Virus record (IMG/VR): IMGVR_UViG_3300032334_001544
Span: 1-58,298 of that record
Source of the DNA: a virus
Taxonomy: Duplodnaviria; Caudoviricetes
Length of the DNA stretch: 58,298 nt
Direction: 5' to 3' (one strand)
The notes under the pieces are model-generated. The model worked only from the letters and a program-made list of their open reading frames with translations. It made no database searches and was not told the DNA's origin. The stretch's first letter is position 1. Each line of letters begins with the position of its first letter. Made by a program: the position numbers and the translations under genes. This document shows positions 49,680 through 58,298 of the stretch, piece after piece.

Positions 49680-50051
49680 TTACCCCGCTGGTGATTGGCC
49701 AGCTTGCATGGCTACCTGTAGTCTAGCCCTATCTGATGTTGGTCTTTGTTGTTTTGGGGCATCTGTTTCATCGAACACACTGGCCACGCCAGCTGCACGT
49801 TTAAGCAATTCCAGCTGTTGCTGCAATGGTCCCACCATCATGTCTGTCTCTGCATCCACAGGACCTGCATCCACAGGCTTGACACCCGTGGCAAGTTCTG
49901 GTTGGCTCACAGGATCTGTCGCCATCATAGGTTCTGCTGTGGCCATCTCAGGTTGCGCACCCACTTGGTCAGGGCCAGGCATCTCATCAGGTTGCAGATC
50001 GTCCAGGTTTAAGGTGATGGGTATTTTAACAATGAATTCTCTGGCTCTCAT
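49680..50051 (-). CDS. putative virion protein
   Basis: MRAREF N-terminus; PLQQQLELLK motif. Confidence 0.55.
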   Translation of the reverse strand: MRAREFIVKIPITLNLDDLQPDEMPGPDQVGAQPEMATAEPMMATDPVSQPELATGVKPVDAGPVDAETDMMVGPLQQQLELLKRAAGVASVFDETDAPKQQRPTSDRARLQVAMQAGQSPAG

Positions 50052-50087
50052 ATCTGATCCTTTACCTGATAGAATTATTTATCTATA

Positions 50088-50687
50088 TTAAAAGATCATA
50101 CTCGCCAAACGCCATCCGTCATTGTATATCAGGTGTACCACACCGCCATCGATGCTGATTATGGCTCCATCTATGTCACTATCTATGGTGCCTCTGATGT
50201 GTATGTTATTGATACTGGCCAATTGGCTTTGATCTTTTATCACTAACTTCTTGCCATTGCTCATGGCAACCAATACTATATCCACACTGCCTGGATAGTT
50301 CACACCTATGTAATAGTCTGAGCTATTGCAGGTGTAACTACCAGATGTAACCAGCCTGGTTGCACTGTAATCACCTCCAGCAGGCCCAGTGGGGCCAACC
50401 AGTGCTGGGCTGCTGTCCACCCAGGTGTTGGCATAGAACACATACATCCTGCCGCCGTTGGTGTCATACCACATGCTGCCAGACTGGCTAGTCACAGGCT
50501 GTGTATTGCCCACGACCACACCACCACTGCTGGTGATGGGTTTGCCACCAGGTGTGATGCCATCGCTTATCCGCAGGCTGTTGGAATCACTGTCATACCA
50601 GATGTGGTATAATTCACCCAGATGGGATCTGCCCTGACCAGGTTTGAAGTCTTTGTAACTGCTAAAGAGTTTCTGGATGAATGGCAT
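50088..50687 (-). CDS. short fibre-like protein paralogous to the N-terminus of the 1174-aa fibre
   Basis: Shared WYD...LRI..G..PGGK and GNxQPVT...[21 protein letters not shown]. Confidence 0.7.
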   Translation of the reverse strand: MPFIQKLFSSYKDFKPGQGRSHLGELYHIWYDSDSNSLRISDGITPGGKPITSSGGVVVGNTQPVTSQSGSMWYDTNGGRMYVFYANTWVDSSPALVGPTGPAGGDYSATRLVTSGSYTCNSSDYYIGVNYPGSVDIVLVAMSNGKKLVIKDQSQLASINNIHIRGTIDSDIDGAIISIDGGVVHLIYNDGWRLASMIF

Positions 50688-50690
50688 GGG

Positions 50691-50996
50691 TCACCCCATG
50701 GGCATCTGAGAGACTGTGGTTATGGCACCAGTGGCAGGTTGGTTCTTGTTGGCTCCGGATTTTACCGTGTCCAACATCTGTTGTAGTGGAGGAGTCCAGA
50801 TCACGTTGCCTTCGCTGTCATAATTCTCACTGGGATCGGTACCATCATCTGCCTGTGGTTCAGGCGCATTGGCAGCAGCATTAGTGATATTGACCACCAC
50901 AGGTGGCTGGGCTGGTTGAGCAGCGGGGCTTGGTTGTTGACCCATCTGTTGAACTATGGCTGATGCTAATTGTGTGATGAATTCGTGGGCTCTCAA
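50691..50996 (-). CDS. putative virion protein, paralog of 49680..50051
   Basis: TTG start, RAHEF and PLQQML motifs; TATAAATA box upstream. Confidence 0.55.
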   Translation of the reverse strand: MRAHEFITQLASAIVQQMGQQPSPAAQPAQPPVVVNITNAAANAPEPQADDGTDPSENYDSEGNVIWTPPLQQMLDTVKSGANKNQPATGAITTVSQMPMG

Positions 50997-51118
50997 TTAC
51001 CTGCTCCTCAGATTATATTTATACGTGTGGACAAGGGTTAGATAAAGAGCAGATATGGCTTGACACCACACAGACGTGTAGTATAGTCGTGATGTAACAG
51101 AGACAAGGAGGACGGACC

Positions 51119-51502
51119 TTGTTACCAGTACCTTATCTGCCTGCACAAGTGCAGCGATACTTCCATGAGTATCACGATTACGAATACTTTCCACAGCCAG
51201 AGTTCGTGGAAGCTAGAGAATATACTGTGATAAATCCTGCAGAAGTCAAAGCCCGGATCCTGGACTATCTGGGACAAGTGCTGGCCAGATGCTGGTGTAA
51301 CTCAGAGCTGATGGATCTGCTCAAACAGAACCCACATGAATGCCTGTTGCAACTGGGCATAATCCTTCCTGAGGAACTGAACATCCTGGTGGAAGAACGC
51401 AAGAACAATCCCAATAGGCCCAGGCTGGTTGTGTATGAGAAGTCAGGCACAATGACCAAACGTGTTTGTAGCCTGCAACTGATGATGACAGCAGGCAGGT
51501 AG
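51119..51502 (+). CDS. NHLP-leader / nitrile hydratase alpha N-terminal-like protein
   Basis: QVLARCW.N.EL...L.QNP..CL..LGI.LPE.L.I.VEE; TTG start with AAGGAGG RBS; TTGACA promoter at 51061. Confidence 0.5.
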   Translation: MLPVPYLPAQVQRYFHEYHDYEYFPQPEFVEAREYTVINPAEVKARILDYLGQVLARCWCNSELMDLLKQNPHECLLQLGIILPEELNILVEERKNNPNRPRLVVYEKSGTMTKRVCSLQLMMTAGR

Positions 51503-51537
51503 TTTCTGCATATCAGATGTCACAGAAGAAATGTCTT

Positions 51538-51571
51538 TTGTAATATGATTGTAACATTCGTAATTTATAAT
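51538..51571 (+). promoter_or_regulatory. Pho box promoter
   Basis: TTGTAAT-ATGA-TTGTAAC (11-bp period) ending exactly 10 nt before a perfect TATAAT; no TTGACA. Confidence 0.7.
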
Positions 51572-51599
51572 ACCTTAAGTAAACGAAGAGATATAATCA

Positions 51600-52502
51600 A
51601 TGCAACCATTTCCAGATTTCAAATTCATGATCAATACACTTAACCGCGACCTAGAGAACAGTGTATTTGCACATATACCATTTGCCATACCAAAAAGTTA
51701 TACTGTGGCACTAGGCCAGATAGGCGATTTAGAAATCAGATTGGCACAAACACGCAAAGAAGTCAAACAGGCACAAAAACTTCGCTATCAGATATTCCAC
51801 AAAGAACAGGGTGCCATTGCCAGTTTGGAATGTATGCTGAAGCAAAGAGATATAGATCCCTATGACGCATATTGTGATCATTTGCTGGTAGTGGATACCA
51901 AATATCCCAGAAAGAAGGTGCCAGGCGTAAAACAGTCATACAAAGAAAAAGTAGTGGGCACATACCGCCTACTCAGACAAGATATAGCAGATAAGCATGT
52001 GGGCTTCTACAGCCAAGCAGAATTTGATGTAGACAGCCTCATCCAGCGACACCCAGGCAAGCGTTTCTTAGAGCTAGGGCGTAGCTGCGTTGATAAAGCA
52101 TACCGCGACAAACGCACAATAGAACTATTGTGGCGTGGCATCTGGTGGTATGTGACAGAACATAAGATAGATGCCATGTTCGGCTGTGCCAGCTTTGAAG
52201 GCACAGACATAAAAAAACTATCTCAGCAACTGAGCTTGCTACAAGATGTTGCCAGTGCTGCACCTGAATGGCAAACATCTGCACATCATTCAGATTTTGA
52301 CACATCAGATAAAATTACATATAATGATGCCAAGAAGGTGTTGCACCAGTTGCCCACCTTGATAAAAGGTTACATGCGCTGTGGTGCCAGATTCGGCACT
52401 GGTGCTGTTATAGATCGTGAATTCAATACCACAGATGTTCTGGTTTTGTTGCCTGTCACAGACATAACTCCTAGATATCGTGAACACTTTACCATGAATT
52501 AA
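51600..52502 (+). CDS. olsB: L-ornithine N-acyltransferase (ornithine lipid synthesis, GNAT)
   Basis: AQKLRYQIF, D.D.YD..CDHLLV.D, VVGTYRLL, FYSQ.EFD, ELGRSCV, FGCASF, LP.LIKGY.R.GA, D..FNT.DV. Confidence 0.8.
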   Translation: MQPFPDFKFMINTLNRDLENSVFAHIPFAIPKSYTVALGQIGDLEIRLAQTRKEVKQAQKLRYQIFHKEQGAIASLECMLKQRDIDPYDAYCDHLLVVDTKYPRKKVPGVKQSYKEKVVGTYRLLRQDIADKHVGFYSQAEFDVDSLIQRHPGKRFLELGRSCVDKAYRDKRTIELLWRGIWWYVTEHKIDAMFGCASFEGTDIKKLSQQLSLLQDVASAAPEWQTSAHHSDFDTSDKITYNDAKKVLHQLPTLIKGYMRCGARFGTGAVIDREFNTTDVLVLLPVTDITPRYREHFTMN

Positions 52503-52521
52503 GCAAACAAAGGAGTCAACA

Positions 52522-53439
52522 ATGCTTAAACGGATTGCAATAGCACTAGCCGGACTACTAACTGCGACTGCTGTAAATGCAGCAGATATTTCAGGAGCAG
52601 GGGCAACATTCCCTTTCCCCATCTATGCTAAGTGGGCAGATGCCTACAAGACAGAAACTGGCAATAGCCTTAATTATCAGAGCATAGGTTCAGGTGCTGG
52701 TATCAAACAAATTATAGCCAAAACTGTAACATTTGGTGCATCAGATATGCCACTGGATCAGAAGGAATTGGACAAGCACGGTCTAGTGCAATTTCCCACA
52801 GTGATTGGCGGCAATGTCATTGTTGTTAATATTGATGGCGTTGCAGCAGGTGAATTGGAATTAGATGGTGCTACTGTGGCAGATATCTACTTGGGCAAGA
52901 TTACCAAATGGTCAGATGCTAAAATTGCCGCACAGAATCCTAAAGTGAAACTACCAGATACTGCCATTACTGTGGTCCGTCGTAGTGACGGATCAGGCAC
53001 CACATATGTGTTTACCAAATATCTCAGTGAAGTCAGCAAGGATTGGGCAGACAAGATTGGATCAGGCACAGCAGTGGAATGGCCAGTGGGCGTTGGTGCC
53101 AAAGGCAATGACGGGGTAGCAGGCAATGTCAAGATGACCAAGAACAGCATCGGCTATGTGGAATATGCTTATGCCAAACAGAACAGTCTGGCACATACCA
53201 CCATTGGTGGCAAGCAACCAGGAAAAGCAACATTCCAAGACAACAGCTGGCCCATCACTGCACCCACATACATCATCATGTACAAGCAACCAGCAGATGC
53301 TAATGCCAGCCGAGAAGCCTTGAAGTTCTTTGAATGGGCTTATGCCAAGGGGGATGCCATGGCAGATGCACTGGATTATGTGCCACTGGATAGCAAGCAA
53401 AAGTCAGCAGTAAAAGAGATCTGGACGGCCATTAAGTAA
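52522..53439 (+). CDS. pstS: phosphate-binding protein PstS
   Basis: Signal peptide, GAGATFP, YQSIGSGAG, FGASD, RSDGSGTT, GKGN-like loop, IGYVEYAYA. Confidence 0.95.
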   Translation: MLKRIAIALAGLLTATAVNAADISGAGATFPFPIYAKWADAYKTETGNSLNYQSIGSGAGIKQIIAKTVTFGASDMPLDQKELDKHGLVQFPTVIGGNVIVVNIDGVAAGELELDGATVADIYLGKITKWSDAKIAAQNPKVKLPDTAITVVRRSDGSGTTYVFTKYLSEVSKDWADKIGSGTAVEWPVGVGAKGNDGVAGNVKMTKNSIGYVEYAYAKQNSLAHTTIGGKQPGKATFQDNSWPITAPTYIIMYKQPADANASREALKFFEWAYAKGDAMADALDYVPLDSKQKSAVKEIWTAIK

Positions 53440-53445
53440 GTTTGC

Positions 53446-54219
53446 ATGGCACAATATCATTCAGTCTTTATCAGCGATGTTCATTTGGGTACCAAAGGCA
53501 GCAAAGCTGAACTATTAGTGGCATTCCTCCGTGAGGTGGAATGCCATAATCTATTCCTGGTGGGCGACATATTCGATGGTTGGCGACTTAAAAAGAACTG
53601 GTACTGGAACGAACATCACAGCACCGTGGTACAGAAGGTGCTCAGGATGGCCCGTAAAGGCACAAAGGTATATTATATTCCTGGCAATCATGACGAGTTC
53701 ATGCGTGAATTCCTGGAATATAATTTCGGCAGCATAGAACTACACAACGAAATGACCTATACAGGTGTCAATAAAAAACAATATATTGTCATACATGGTG
53801 ACAAATTTGACTTTGTCACACTCAACATGAAATGGCTGGCACACATAGGTGACCAGGGCTATACGCTGTTGCTAAACCTCAACACTGTGTTACACTGGAT
53901 CATGGCCAAACTCAAATTGCCTTATTGGAGCCTGAGCAAATGGGCCAAGAGCCAGGTCAAACAAGCAGTTAATTTCGTAGGCGATTATGAGGCCAGCTTG
54001 GTAAATTATGCCAGGATCAAACATGCAGATGGCATCATATGCGGTCACATACACAGTGCCAACATCAGTACAATTAATCACATTGAATATATGAATTCCG
54101 GCGATTGGGTTGAGAGTTGCACAGCCTTAGTTGAGCACACCGATGGTCTCTGGGAAATAATTACATGGACAGCAAATGAAGATAACACTAGTAACAGACA
54201 CATGGACACCCAGCATTAA
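53446..54219 (+). CDS. plcP: PlcP-type intracellular phospholipase C (LpxH-like metallophosphoesterase)
   Basis: FISDVHLG, LVGDIFDGW, GNHDE, HGD.FD, WSLS, CGHIH, YMNSGDWVESCTALVE; adjacent GT4 gene. Confidence 0.75.
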   Translation: MAQYHSVFISDVHLGTKGSKAELLVAFLREVECHNLFLVGDIFDGWRLKKNWYWNEHHSTVVQKVLRMARKGTKVYYIPGNHDEFMREFLEYNFGSIELHNEMTYTGVNKKQYIVIHGDKFDFVTLNMKWLAHIGDQGYTLLLNLNTVLHWIMAKLKLPYWSLSKWAKSQVKQAVNFVGDYEASLVNYARIKHADGIICGHIHSANISTINHIEYMNSGDWVESCTALVEHTDGLWEIITWTANEDNTSNRHMDTQH

Positions 54220-55186
54220 TGGTGTTGTAACAACATTAGTTAATACAGTGGAACACCTGCAACAATTAGGACATGATGTCCAGATCATAGAACCTGGACA
54301 GTTTTGCACTGTGGGATTGCCAGGCTATCAGGAAGTCAGATTAAGTTGGGACATCTGGCGTGTGGGTAAACTGATAGCACAGTTTGATCCTGATGCCATA
54401 CATATTGCCACTGAAGGACCACTGGGGCTAGCTGCCAGATGGTATTGCAAGGTGGACAAACGAAGTATACCACATAACACCAGCTACCATACAAAGTTTC
54501 CTGAATACATGAGCCATCATTATAAGATTCCAGAATCATGGAGCTATTGGTGGATGCGTGTGTTTCACAAGTTCAGCACAAAAGTGTTGGTGACTAATCA
54601 GGACATGCAGGCAGATCTCACACAGCGTGGTTTCCAGAACTTGGCCATATGGAATCGTGGTGTCAATCGCGACCTGTTTAATCCCCAGAGACGCAAGAGA
54701 ACCAGCTATCAGGGACCTATTATACTCTGTGTGAGCCGTGTGAGTAAAGAAAAGGGACTGGAGGACTTTTGCAACCTGCAGGTAAAAGGCACCAAAGTTC
54801 TAGTAGGTGATGGCCCCATACTTGCAGAACTGAAAAGAAAATATCCAGATGTCATATTCACAGGTGCCAAGACAGGCACTGCATTGGCTGAATATTATGC
54901 TGCTGCTGATGTATTCGTGTTTCCCAGCAAGACCGATACATTTGGTGTTGTCATTTTGGAAAGCATCGCATCAGGTACACCAGTAGCTGCTTATCCTGTT
55001 ACAGGCCCCAGAGATGTTGTTATAAATGATGTCAACGGGTATATGGATGACGATTTGACAACTGCGGTTAAACGTGCTATTGTCTGTGATAGAATCCAGG
55101 TAAGGCACAGCAGTGAGCAATATGACTGGGCAGCTTGTACAGAAACTTTTATAAAAAACCTGAAAATAATTGAAAAAAACAATTGA
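54176..55186 (+). CDS. GT4 glycosyltransferase, Agt-like glycosyl-diacylglycerol synthase
   Basis: TD.W.P.INGVV.TL, HIATEGPLG, YHTKFPEY, W.RGV, ADVFVFPSKTDTFG.V.LE..ASGTPVAAYPV.GP; overlaps plcP. Confidence 0.75.
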   Translation: MKITLVTDTWTPSINGVVTTLVNTVEHLQQLGHDVQIIEPGQFCTVGLPGYQEVRLSWDIWRVGKLIAQFDPDAIHIATEGPLGLAARWYCKVDKRSIPHNTSYHTKFPEYMSHHYKIPESWSYWWMRVFHKFSTKVLVTNQDMQADLTQRGFQNLAIWNRGVNRDLFNPQRRKRTSYQGPIILCVSRVSKEKGLEDFCNLQVKGTKVLVGDGPILAELKRKYPDVIFTGAKTGTALAEYYAAADVFVFPSKTDTFGVVILESIASGTPVAAYPVTGPRDVVINDVNGYMDDDLTTAVKRAIVCDRIQVRHSSEQYDWAACTETFIKNLKIIEKNN

Positions 55187-55212
55187 CAGATGTTGTCAGT
55201 AGTGTATAAATA
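55183..55212 (+). promoter_or_regulatory. promoter of the RNA cluster (sigma70-like plus late TATAAATA)
   Basis: TTGACA-N16-TATAAATA. Confidence 0.7.
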
Positions 55213-55242
55213 TATAGTAAGTTAAACAAACGGAACGAAGAA

Positions 55243-55320
55243 ATGTTTATGTCTCAAGAACCGAACCAGAATATTTGCAATTGGTATGCCCGTCATACCT
55301 CAGGGGTCCTTGTGGCATGA
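55243..55320 (+). CDS. putative attenuator leader peptide, 25 aa
   Basis: MFMSQEPNQNICNWYARHTSGVLVA; its 3' end forms the 5' arm of an antiterminator. Confidence 0.5.
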   Translation: MFMSQEPNQNICNWYARHTSGVLVA

Positions 55321-55346
55321 TGTGAACGCACATCATCGTGATACAA

Positions 55347-55375
55347 GAACCCCGGTGTCGAACCCGGGGTTTTTT
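55347..55375 (+). terminator. intrinsic terminator (attenuator)
   Basis: AACCCCGG/CCGGGGTT stem plus TTTTT. Confidence 0.8.
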
Positions 55376-55379
55376 CATG

Positions 55380-55705
55380 GACTAACAGGCAGTTGCTCCC
55401 TGTGCATAAGAGCAACCAGTGACTGGTACTTGAGCCTCATGGCTGAATAGGTGGTTTCCAGCATTGCAGGAGAGATTGTCTCTCCACAGATACATCTGTG
55501 TGTATCTGTGAAGTGACATACAACCGCCCAGGGCGGACCAAGTTGTGGGTGGAGGTAACCCTCAGTGGAGCAGGCCACTCAGAAACATTCCTGCTGTGTT
55601 GGACCTGTTACAAGGTCTGGGTAAGGGCGATCAAAAGCCAGTGTGGCAGCGGTAGAGGGGGCTGGCCACATCAGATTTTTCACAGCCAAATCTCAGCTGT
55701 GATAT
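55380..55705 (+). ncRNA. putative large structured ncRNA, class unknown
   Basis: GC-rich stretch with no convincing ORF, many hairpins and a long-range helix, between the attenuator and tRNA-Asn. Confidence 0.5.
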
Positions 55706-55715
55706 ATAAGAATGA

Positions 55716-55791
55716 TTCCCGATAGCTCAGCTGGTAGAGCATCTGACTGTTAATCAGAGTGTCCCTGGTTCGAGCCCAGGTCGGGGAGCCA
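55716..55791 (+). tRNA. tRNA-Asn(GTT)
   Basis: Cloverleaf; TCTGA-CTGTTAA-TCAGA; GGTTCGA; CCA end. Confidence 0.95.
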
Positions 55792-55796
55792 AATTT

Positions 55797-55870
55797 ATCT
55801 CGTAAGTGTTACGGTAGCACATCAGTCTCCAAAACTGAGGGCGTAGGTTCGACTCCTACACGGGGTGCCA
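55797..55870 (+). tRNA. tRNA-Trp(CCA)
   Basis: TCAGT-CTCCAAA-ACTGA; GGTTCGA; CCA end. Confidence 0.9.
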
Positions 55871-55889
55871 GAATATAAGTAGCCATAAC

Positions 55890-56498
55890 ATGTCCATACC
55901 TAAGATATTGATACAAACCAGCCGTGATCCATTACCTGAATATGTGACCCATATGATCCAGGACAAGTTGCCTGCAGGTTGGCATTATCAACATTTCAAC
56001 CATGAACAACGGGAACAATGGCTACAGCTGAATGCCCATCAGTTATTTCCTGACATCATGTCAGTCTATCACAGATTACCCACAGGTGCTCACCAATCAG
56101 ACCTGTTCAGGTATTATTTCCTATATCTCACAGGGGGCATGTACCTGGATAGCGATGCCATGCTGGAACAGCATGCAGATCAGATCATTAGAGATGCAGA
56201 TCTGGTAGTAGTGGTAAACCAACATGGCAGCACATTTAACGGATTTATAGCTGCTGAACCTGGACATGCCATGTTGCTGGCAGCACTGACAGATGTGTAT
56301 CATACAGACCCAAATTATCTGAGACATGATTACCTGTTGTTCTGTCGCAACCTGTATAATATGATCAGCGTACACAGCACCAGCCGAACACGCATACTCA
56401 TGGAAGATCAGGTCACCGCTGAAGGTTGGGGTAGTTTCGCTGGAAGTGAATGCGTGGTGATGCATTACCCCAATACCAAGATAATTCCTCAAAGATAA
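55890..56498 (+). CDS. glycosyltransferase (GT32/DxD sugar-binding)
   Basis: IPK...QT, SDLFRY..LY..GG.YLDSD, NGF.A..P.H. Confidence 0.8.
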   Translation: MSIPKILIQTSRDPLPEYVTHMIQDKLPAGWHYQHFNHEQREQWLQLNAHQLFPDIMSVYHRLPTGAHQSDLFRYYFLYLTGGMYLDSDAMLEQHADQIIRDADLVVVVNQHGSTFNGFIAAEPGHAMLLAALTDVYHTDPNYLRHDYLLFCRNLYNMISVHSTSRTRILMEDQVTAEGWGSFAGSECVVMHYPNTKIIPQR

Positions 56499-56501
56499 TA
56501 C

Positions 56502-56577
56502 GGCCTTGTAGCTCAATCGGGAGAGTGCCAGCCTGTCACGCTGGAGGTAGCCGGATCGAAACCGGTCAAGGTCGCCA
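56502..56577 (+). tRNA. tRNA-Asp(GTC)
   Basis: CCAGC-CTGTCAC-GCTGG; T-loop ATCGAAA; CCA end. Confidence 0.9.
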
Positions 56578-56629
56578 ATTTTGTGGTTGACAATATGATG
56601 ACCTATGTTATATTCGTAATATGATGTTA

Positions 56630-56706
56630 GGCCACGTAGCTCAGCCGGATAGAGCACAGGTTTCCTAAACCTGGGGTCGCAGGTTCAAGTCCTGCCGTGG
56701 TCGCCA
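56630..56706 (+). tRNA. tRNA-Arg(CCT)
   Basis: CAGGT-TTCCTAA-ACCTG; GGTTCAA; CCA end; own TTGACA promoter at 56587. Confidence 0.9.
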
Positions 56707-56711
56707 ATATT

Positions 56712-56794
56712 GGGGCGGAAGTATCAAGGTGATACCGGGGACTGTAAATCCCCCGCTTAAAGCACGCCTGGTTCGATTCCAGGACGCCCCACCA
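56712..56794 (+). tRNA. tRNA-Tyr(GTA)
   Basis: GGGGA-CTGTAAA-TCCCC; long variable arm; GGTTCGA; ACCA end. Confidence 0.85.
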
Positions 56795-56797
56795 AGT

Positions 56798-56892
56798 TTG
56801 CGTCTAGTGTAATGGTAGCACAGGAAATCCGAGACGCCGAGAGGTGGAGTAGGTTTCAAAATGCCAAGAGCGGTTCGATTCCGCAGCGCAAA
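56798..56892 (+). ncRNA. tRNA-like RNA with replaced anticodon arm
   Basis: D-arm TAGTGTAATGGTAGCAC and T-arm GCGG-TTCGATT-CCGC present; extended central stem with GAGA tetraloop; no CCA. Confidence 0.5.
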
Positions 56893-56899
56893 AGAGTTT

Positions 56900-57006
56900 G
56901 ATGCGTTATCGAGCCTTAATGGGGTAATGGTGCCCTGCCTGTGAGGTGGCTCCCGGTACAGTGCCTCCAAAACACTGTGCAGGAAGGATTCGAGCGCCTA
57001 CGCATC
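56900..57006 (+). ncRNA. atypical tRNA-Trp-like RNA with enlarged D region
   Basis: GATGCGT/ACGCATC closing stem; ACAGTG-cCTCCAAAa-CACTGT arm; degenerate TTCGA loop. Confidence 0.45.
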
Positions 57007-57191
57007 TTAAGAGTTTGCAGTGAAAAGGCTGCGTCGGCTGCACTGACCCCTATGCCCTATGCTGGCCAGCGTCTACCGGGCGTGGTTAGGGACCATGTGC
57101 CACTGCAAAACAGAATAGAGAGATTGTAGGTGGACCTGTAAAAATTGCCGTTGGTGGTAATGTGACTGGGTTGTAACCTTCATTAATTTAC

Positions 57192-57266
57192 GAGGATATG
57201 GCCGAGTGCTTTAGGCAACGATCTGCAAAATCGTTTAGATTGGTTGAATTCCAATTATCCTCTCCA
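57192..57266 (+). tRNA. tRNA-Cys(GCA)
   Basis: ACGAT-CTGCAAA-ATCGT; GAGGATA/TATCCTC; TCCA end. Confidence 0.9.
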
Positions 57267-57440
57267 TATTCTTCTTGGAACTTTAGTATTCTTTTATAAA
57301 GTTCTTCCAAAGTGATAGATGAATTTTTATGTTTGTTCAAAACCAAAAAATAAATTCAATTCACTCCCAGACCTCCAAGAAATAAACGGTTGACAAGACC
57401 TGGAAAAATGTTAATATCATGATATAACAAGGAGATGACC

Positions 57441-57557
57441 ATGCGTAGCATATATGCCAAAGCTCTGGCTGATAAGCTGTTCAAACAGCGCATCGTCAGA
57501 TCCCGCAAAGGTAAGGGCAGCTATAAACGCCAGCCCAAGCATAAAGGAGAGAAATGA
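57441..57557 (+). CDS. arfA: alternative ribosome-rescue factor A-like, 38 aa (not in ORF track)
   Basis: AAGGAG RBS, TTGACA promoter at 57390; ALADKLFKQRIVRSRKGKGSYKRQPKH against E. coli [28 protein letters not shown]. Confidence 0.8.
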   Translation: MRSIYAKALADKLFKQRIVRSRKGKGSYKRQPKHKGEK

Positions 57558-57974
57558 ATGTTGGAATGTCTTATCTTGGGCGATAGCATCGCATCTGGTA
57601 TCCACCAGGTGAAACAAGGTTGCATCGGTATCACAGAGATCGGTGTCAATAGTGGTGATTTTCACCGAAAGTATCACAAGCGGCCGTTGATCACTGATAT
57701 AGATTATCGTTACGTGGTGATCAGTCTCACCACTAACGATCTTAATGTGCGTAATGCCAGGGAGAACTTGCATCTCATACGTAAAGCTGTGCGTACCGAA
57801 CGAGTGATCTGGATATTGCCAGGAGATAAGAAACCTGAAATGCGATCATTGGTCGAGGATGTGGCTAACTTTTATAATGATCACATCATGGATATCACAA
57901 ACCACGTGGGCGCAGATCGCATACACCCGCCCACCGTAAGAGCTTACGAAAACATCGCCAAGAAGATCAAGTGA
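57558..57974 (+). CDS. SGNH/GDSL hydrolase (paralog of 39120..39539)
   Basis: MLECLILGDSIA, SLTTND, DRIHP. Confidence 0.8.
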   Translation: MLECLILGDSIASGIHQVKQGCIGITEIGVNSGDFHRKYHKRPLITDIDYRYVVISLTTNDLNVRNARENLHLIRKAVRTERVIWILPGDKKPEMRSLVEDVANFYNDHIMDITNHVGADRIHPPTVRAYENIAKKIK

Positions 57975-58205
57975 TCAGGCAAACTTGCTGGCGATACTGA
58001 TGGCTGTGATCAGTGCAGCTTTGACTGCCATGTCATCAGCAACGTCATTCAATTTGTCAGTGGCGATCAGATCTTCCATGAGCTCTTTGGCTTCATCAGG
58101 AGATAGTGCACCTGAGTTGCGCTGTGCTTGTATATCTAATGCCATCTGGGCACGTTCTGATGCCCAGCTGTGATCGTTGTTTGCTAGTTCTTTCAATGTG
58201 GCCAT
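57975..58205 (-). CDS. hypothetical protein
   Basis: GGAG RBS; convergent with the SGNH gene. Confidence 0.6.
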   Translation of the reverse strand: MATLKELANNDHSWASERAQMALDIQAQRNSGALSPDEAKELMEDLIATDKLNDVADDMAVKAALITAISIASKFA

Positions 58206-58298
58206 CAGAATCTCCCCAATACGGCTTTGCTGGCAATCTTAGCTTGTTGTATCACAATGTTCTTCTTGAGCTTGCAATAACCCTCTGATGGGTTCTCA

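Follow-up and report, generated by a model that had tools for sequence, protein, structure and literature searches.

A candidate ribosome-mediated transcription attenuator at the head of a structured-RNA and tRNA array in large freshwater myoviruses

The transfer RNA (tRNA) genes of phages are usually viewed as aids to codon usage or as spares against the loss of host tRNAs, and to our knowledge the control of their expression is largely unknown. The question of such control is raised by one locus in the virus record IMGVR_UViG_3300032334_001544, whose 58,298 nucleotides (nt) were analysed as a whole and are called the window here. This 58-kilobase contig belongs to a large myovirus and encodes a tail sheath, a tail tube, a large terminase and a UvsX-like recombinase; DNA related to it is present in freshwater and lake metagenomes. 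At 55183-55375 a promoter-like motif, a short open reading frame (ORF) and an intrinsic terminator stand just ahead of a structured RNA and a series of tRNA genes. It is proposed that this element is probably a ribosome-mediated (leader-peptide) transcription attenuator of the trp type heading the structured-RNA and tRNA array. As predicted from its sequence it has the structure by which a leader-peptide attenuator is defined, and we infer both a kinetic competition between its folds and the identity of what is sensed.

The leader and its competing pairings

A promoter, a 25-codon ORF and a strong terminator had been claimed for 55183-55376 by a sequence-only reading of the window, and all three are found there, on the plus strand. 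The promoter-like motif, read from the sequence, consists of a -35-like hexamer, TTGACA (55183-55188), and a -10-like hexamer, TATAAATA (55205-55212), with a 16-nt spacer between the hexamers and an 11/12 match to the consensus; our promoter consensus scan omits it, as its rule calls for T as the sixth base of the second hexamer. The leader ORF (55243-55320) has 25 codons followed by TGA and contains 18 of the 20 amino acids, D and K being absent. A short Shine-Dalgarno-like element, GGA (55232-55234), lies 8 nt 5' of the ATG. The ribosome-binding site had been called weak, which is correct in so far as only the 3-mer GGA is present, but the same 3-mer-only state occurs in 8 of 43 long window genes (a 4-mer is present in 23 and no Shine-Dalgarno element in 12), and GGA or GAG is kept at -8 to -12 in 14/14 leader starts listed, which cover every leader family. 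The terminator (55347-55375) has an 11-base-pair (bp) stem (55347-55372, -15.3 kcal/mol) and a U6 tract (55370-55375); it was left unlisted by a simple scan, presumably as the extension of the stem runs into the T run. The whole promoter-to-terminator transcript would be about 165 nt long, the gap between terminator and conserved RNA is some 10 nt, and the leader segment has a minimum free energy (MFE) of -47.8 kcal/mol (z -2.25).

When the RNA is folded without the terminator 3' arm, the last five sense codons (55303-55316; region 2, the antiterminator 5' arm) pair with 55338-55353 (region 3, the antiterminator 3' arm) around an inner hairpin at -29.8 kcal/mol. Region 3 overlaps the terminator 5' arm, and the antiterminator occupies 10 of the 11 bases of that arm; the contribution of the ORF end to this fold is -19.3 kcal/mol, against -10.2 ± 2.9 kcal/mol for shuffled ORF ends (P=0.007). 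The earlier proposal that the 3' end of the ORF sequesters the terminator 5' arm, making the two structures mutually exclusive, is confirmed by this fold, which is available before the terminator 3' arm exists. The stop codon (55318-55320) follows region 2 directly and is contained in the inner hairpin (55317-55336; 8 bp, 4-nt loop), which is compatible with both states and whose loop positions 55326 and 55328 vary among lake metagenome contigs with the stem kept. In the fold of the full leader, the ORF end may pair instead with 55249-55262 (region 1, codons 3-7), freeing the terminator; regions 2, 3 and 4 had been seen in the sequence-only reading, but region 1, which pairs with region 2 in MFE folds, had been overlooked. 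With the 1:2 pairing added to the 2:3 and 3:4 pairings, the design would be a four-region, trp-like one. MFE folds also contain a small hairpin within the ORF (55283-55299; 6-bp stem, 5-nt loop), whose stem is kept and whose loop varies in the related loci L001 and L017, with an analogous hairpin in one further leader family (family E below); it may possibly act as a pause hairpin.

The effect of a ribosome on these folds was modelled by masking. With the ribosome masked at the stop codon, the terminator is present in the MFE structure in 10/10 leader variants, and the energy gap in favour of the terminator, 1-14 kcal/mol at early stalls, becomes 12-22 kcal/mol once the ribosome covers region 2.

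The following mechanism is proposed. Transcription would start from the promoter at 55183-55212, possibly supplemented by read-in from an operon-like gene run upstream, and the ORF would be translated while RNA polymerase advances. A ribosome at the last codons or the stop codon (55303-55320) would cover region 2 and leave region 3 free, so that the terminator is formed and RNA synthesis stops at 55375; without a loaded ribosome, region 1 would pair with region 2 and termination would result likewise. A ribosome held within about the first 16 codons would cover region 1 and leave region 2 free, and the latter could then pair with region 3 ahead of the synthesis of the terminator 3' arm, allowing the polymerase to continue into the structured RNA and the tRNAs. 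Given read-through at early stalls and termination at the end of the ORF, the output would rise when decoding is slow relative to transcription, and since 18 of the 20 amino acids are sampled by the peptide, the rare Cys and Trp always among them, read-through could be triggered by slow decoding at many different codons.

The layout in related loci

Relatives were found by a glycosyltransferase anchor (which gave L001) and by exact-motif scans for the RNA behind the terminator, and 18 distinct contexts were obtained, namely the window and 17 loci (numbered with an L), in all of which the core of the downstream RNA is found. Relaxed motif scans also gave matches by chance in coding DNA without relation to the locus (L023, L024, L026 and L027), and these are left out of all counts. 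The glycosyltransferase anchor gave five loci; among L001-L003 the leader is present in L001 only, L002 and L003 running into unrelated genes, and no tRNA genes are found in the anchored loci L002-L005. A second glycosyltransferase used as anchor gave no relatives. In a blastn search of the GenBank phage collection, 552 records match tRNA parts only and none covers 80% of the query; with the matches confined to the tRNA parts, no cultured relative was found at that sensitivity.

A promoter-like motif, a 25-34-codon ORF and a terminator just 5' of the structured RNA are present in 18/18 contexts. The leaders fall into five families (A to E) with 15 distinct peptides, and both peptides and stems are barely alignable between families. 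The sequence-only reading had suggested a search of relatives for a shared architecture in which peptides diverge yet stay diverse in amino acids and stem changes compensate each other; this was recovered in all 18 contexts. TTGACA stands 16 nt 5' of TATAAA also in L001, L017, L015, L013 and L011, and a TATAAATA-like motif lies 30-55 nt 5' of the leader ATG in 5/5 families; TATAAATA is also a match to the T4-type late-promoter consensus, and a late promoter may be presumed. The distance from stop codon to U-tract is 49-54 nt, with 60 nt in L011.

The pairing between ORF end and terminator is retained throughout. In 10/10 variants folded before the 3' arm, between 6 and 10 of the 9-12 bases in the terminator 5' arm are paired with the end of the ORF, and the same pairing is seen in five further family-E variants; terminator stems of 9-12 bp occur in all fifteen. 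The contribution of the ORF end exceeds that of shuffled ORF ends at P<0.05 in 9/10 variants. When 17 unique strong terminators in the DNA analysed were compared, 5/6 flagged leader terminators passed the ORF-end pairing test, whereas the single terminator that passed among 11 nominal controls turned out to be the unflagged leader of L018, leaving 0/10 true controls. The pairing arms differ in sequence among families and nevertheless remain complementary. Since a MAFFT alignment of all families was structurally inconsistent, covariation was counted in family B only and the other families were compared through per-sequence folds. In family B, 89% of the antiterminator cells are paired (28-35% with slid partners), both sides have changed in 4 of 10 outer-stem pairs, and the covariation score is reached by 1 of 500 shuffles.

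Every locus with enough downstream sequence has the structured RNA and then 2-21 tRNA genes on the same strand. In the window, this conserved structured RNA (55385-55520, core 55392-55467, plus strand) is the first element behind the terminator, and 11 of its 31 predicted pairs have compensatory changes among 11 sequences. The first tRNAs of the array, tRNA-Asn(GTT) and tRNA-Trp(CCA), lie at 55716-55870 on the plus strand and are followed by four further tRNAs up to 57266.

Translation, diversity and rival explanations

Variation in the leader was used to judge whether the ORF is translated. In family A the variable columns fall on codon positions 1/2/3 in the numbers 2/4/14, with nine codons changed synonymously only and five with residue changes, and this preponderance of third-position changes argues for translation. 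Lake variants, taken from contigs of four metagenome DNA runs, likewise show mostly synonymous third-position changes, and codons 11-13 of family A, which lie outside any predicted stem, carry three changes that are all synonymous. The ORF is open, and its stop stands at the same structural place, in 15/15 distinct peptides; the coding frame is richer in distinct amino acids than both other frames in 14/15 variants. Residues of family B change freely outside a conserved core, which speaks against translation or is neutral. The window leader scores low in codon adaptiveness (0.599, against 0.764 ± 0.078; 2.3rd percentile), and as the rare codons lie in RNA stems no inference is drawn from it. 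From these observations taken together, translation in vivo may be inferred.

The peptides are more varied than expected. The chance of at least 18 distinct residues in 25 is 0.0055 for independent, identically distributed draws from the window composition, 0.0025 for 25-residue windows of 50 long window ORFs and 0.002 for the first 25 residues of 506 ATG-ORFs in all frames. Diversity lies above expectation in 15/15 peptides (z 0.34-3.48), and the family medians combined by Fisher's test yield 9e-6, and 1e-3 when the discovery family is left out. All 20 amino acids occur in two peptides of 33-34 residues, and Cys and Trp are each present in 15/15 peptides, with 28% and 40% expected, respectively. 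On these grounds the leader may tentatively be regarded as a 'test strip' for the whole tRNA pool that senses a shortage of almost any tRNA. Under this reading, itself rather doubtful, selection would keep the leader stocked with nearly every amino acid and with the rare ones above all; and it is conceivable, with no greater confidence, that a loss of host tRNA through starvation, shut-off or an anticodon-cutting defence nuclease would stall the ribosome and so open transcription of the phage tRNAs and structured RNA.

Several observations weigh against the proposed attenuator or restrict what it can be. The terminator state is the equilibrium MFE at every ribosome position in 15/15 variants, so that a switch would have to work kinetically, like that of trp. 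The region 1:2 pairing, which the MFE folds show for families A, B, D and E, is significant in only 4/10 variants (L001, L017, L014 and L007), with P=0.42 in the window. The leader families are probably homologous, and the P values are therefore not independent. Conserved peptide segments are encoded by RNA stems, which confounds residue conservation with structure; family E lacks the third-position excess (2/3/4), and family B without L007 has 4 synonymous-only against 14 residue-changing codons. Diversity is ordinary in family D (15 distinct residues in 27, P=0.51) and moderate in family E (16-18 of 26-29, P 0.02-0.19). There are no single-codon runs, and no residue occurs more than three times in the window peptide, so the element is not of the amino-acid-specific subtype (trp, his, leu, phe). 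Between terminator and RNA, families B and C possess a site resembling a sigma-70 promoter (9/12, 11/12 and 10/12 matches), as at L008 3990-4018, L014 284-312 and L011 1229-1201 (minus strand), with which the array there would be independent of read-through; read-through would add to its expression rather than gate it. Finally, 9 of the 34 leader residues of L020 are without a tRNA in the part of its array that was examined, and about 8.9 would be expected. A leader composition matched to the tRNAs of the phage itself was considered and not adopted, given this L020 count and an Arg codon in the window leader that the encoded tRNA-Arg(CCT) does not read.

The promoter-like site of families B and C is absent in the window, L001 and L015, and in the window and family D there is no room for a promoter between terminator and RNA. 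A consensus scan of 55376-55716 (plus strand) found no promoter-like site, a weak negative as the same scan missed the leader promoter. The gating of the RNA cluster claimed in the sequence-only reading would not be absolute in families B and C.

Ribosomes may be arrested by the nascent peptide in response to a particular signal, as in TnaC and antibiotic-sensing leaders. It is to be considered whether the locus is an attenuator in which diversity plays no role, and which either gauges overall ribosome speed or availability as an infection timer or responds to one signal by nascent-peptide arrest. Such an element would share all the structural evidence given above; family D keeps the switch at ordinary diversity, and motifs recur among the peptides (Ile-Cys in families A and E, Gly-x-Trp in families B, D and E). 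For the BmrCD (PMC4191407) and ToiL (PMC12121999) leaders, sensing of drugs or ligands through the nascent chain or through general stalling is described. We nevertheless consider this explanation rather unlikely, for the diversity is specific to the coding frame in 14 of the 15 variants and above expectation in every peptide, the conserved residues are stem-encoded and perhaps not selected as residues, and arrest at the ORF end would in this geometry favour termination instead of read-through.

A complete transcript of about 165 nt from promoter to terminator could instead belong to a small gene standing on its own, which encodes a 25-34-residue peptide or a dual-function small RNA and ends in an ordinary terminator, the pairing being a matter of RNA stability or a by-product and the array being reached by leak-through or from other promoters. 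The conservation of residues within families, the constant presence of Cys and Trp, the separate promoter-like site of families B and C and the terminator as permanent equilibrium state are all in keeping with such a gene. It gives, however, no reason for the pairing of the last codons with the terminator arm, which is found through different sequences in all 15 variants and in none of the ten true control terminators, nor is it clear from it why the unit always heads the same RNA and tRNA array, with only about 10 nt between terminator and conserved RNA in the window. The window peptide moreover has no PHROG match and the family-B peptide no usable Atlas match, and we regard a stand-alone gene as unlikely.

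An untranslated element, whose long bipartite hairpin would be a processing site (e.g. for RNase III) or a structural domain at the 5' end of the array precursor and whose ORF would have arisen by chance, would suit the high degree of structure, the short ribosome-binding site and the concentration of conserved bases in stems, but it is very improbable in view of an ORF that stays open with its stop at one structural position in 15/15 variants, the 2/4/14 pattern of family A, the exclusively synonymous changes in the stem-free codons 11-13, the frame-specific diversity and the conserved, rightly spaced GGA/GAG before each start.

Precedents, the downstream array and its setting

Attenuators of enterobacterial amino-acid operons include trpL and the multivalent thrL and ilvL. 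With the trp-type attenuators the leader candidate shares a promoter-proximal short ORF, the predicted pairings 1:2, 2:3 and 3:4 with a U-tract, a stop codon in region 2 and a fold that would be decided by the position of the ribosome. In contrast to them, the element lies in a phage, its peptide is near-maximally diverse and has no codon run for one amino acid, the element precedes RNA genes rather than biosynthetic enzymes, and an extra hairpin is found between regions 2 and 3. In the kinetic model of attenuation, it is runs of one codon that give sensitivity (PMC1183508).

Closer in logic is the upstream ORF (uORF) of whiB7 in Mycobacterium smegmatis. This leader contains every amino acid except Cys and senses many starvations, its sensing follows the composition of the uORF, and one Trp codon suffices for Trp starvation (PMC10274678); the tRNA-cleaving toxin VapC5 is reported to induce whiB7 (PMC10287673). 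The general contrast made in the sequence-only reading, that classical attenuators sense one amino acid, is too narrow in the light of the multiple starvations sensed by the whiB7 leader (PMC10274678). The whiB7/wblC systems of mycobacteria, as described there, resemble the phage leader in joining a uORF to an antiterminator/terminator pair that answers many translation stresses. They differ in that the whiB7 uORF is Ala-rich and controls a bacterial transcription factor, whereas in the phage leader no single residue is enriched, Cys and Trp are never missing, and the genes under direct control would be tRNA genes. A comparison confined to Rfam gave no sequence similarity to the whiB7 element. 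With whiB7 as an analogous precedent for its logic, the reading in which a shortage of any tRNA is sensed appears plausible.

The short leader ORFs of bmrB-bmrCD (PMC4191407), toiL-topAI (PMC12121999) and msrD (PMC10314930) are presented as general sensors of impaired translation in which stalling relieves premature termination. Unlike the phage leader, these systems are responsive to drugs and govern genes for resistance or toxins, none of them tRNA genes, and some act via Rho or nascent-chain arrest. From Anabaena a stress-induced tRNA operon is described, an array of accessory tRNAs turned on under impaired translation (PMC8421152, PMC10272220). Its control is at the promoter level, by direct repeats and the repressor TrcR, and the strings 'attenuat', 'leader' and 'terminator' each occur 0 times in its description (PMC8421152). 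In its working the phage leader would come closest to the whiB7 uORF and to the leaders that respond to drugs, and its apparent purpose would be that of the Anabaena operon. A published attenuator before phage tRNA genes, or before any tRNA genes, was not found in the full-text literature, supplements aside.

If the attenuator is real, a group of large freshwater myoviruses gauges the decoding speed of ribosomes and feeds it into tRNA transcription, the oldest known RNA switch logic being applied to RNA genes rather than to enzymes. The element would serve as a small sensor, of natural origin, for decoding stress in general, it would point to a share of the conserved RNA behind it in that response, and the proposed arms race around tRNA-cleaving defences would become experimentally approachable. 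Should a shortage of any tRNA indeed be what is sensed, the leader would constitute a virus-borne, direct supply-and-demand loop between decoding and tRNA synthesis.

The structured RNA has two parts, a hairpin whose loop is conserved and a further domain that hardly varies. No other piece of the region is as conserved, and over this RNA the depth of lake-metagenome contigs is far above that of the flanks. An Rfam cmscan of 50000-58298 (E<=1) returned no family for the leader or the structured RNA, the matches being tRNAs and one chance snoRNA match elsewhere. In one family-E lineage (L013/L022/L025) a Lys-rich ORF of 52 amino acids with a strong Shine-Dalgarno element lies between the attenuator candidate and the structured RNA. 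Past the RNA core of L006, L007, L008 and L011, array units appear to be flanked on both sides by a recurring stem-plus-tail motif whose arms enclose variable inserts, an arrangement that looks like a cassette or a processing signal; the corresponding stem in the window (55485-55510) is 'empty'. At 55524-55540 the window keeps two acceptor-stem halves and an ACCA end, joined by 3 bases, where a full tRNA-Glu(TTC) is found in L001 (5343-5419), L016 (310-386) and L017 (7749-7825); judged by this comparison, the remnant looks like the product of an internal deletion that left a mini-helix.

Two tRNAs called by ARAGORN inside arrays carry the anticodons TCA ('SeC', 69 nt; L017 10982-11050) and CTA ('Pyl'; L020 8740-8814). 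They could possibly be suppressors of stop codons, and the family-A leader ends in TGA. Leader codons 12-17 of the window (55276-55293) read Cys-Asn-Trp-Tyr-Ala-Arg, and five of these six amino acids are among the tRNA identities of the window (Asn, Trp, Asp, Arg, Tyr, Cys); the rough, position-corrected chance of this overlap is ~0.07, and relatives with the same motif have other tRNA sets.

Directly 5' of the leader, an operon-like run of four genes occupies 51600-55186 on the plus strand. It encodes a GNAT acyltransferase (Acetyltransf_5/FeeM-like), a PstS-type phosphate-binding protein, a metallophosphoesterase and a family-4 glycosyltransferase, a set that we take to be like the lipid-remodelling genes of bacterial phosphate stress. 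In family E the leader comes straight after the PstS gene. Beyond the tRNAs, an ORF of 40 amino acids at 57435-57557 has a weak PHROG match to phrog_37108 (function unknown; E=1.6e-5), and together with the leader it suggests a phage that has invested in the control of translation.

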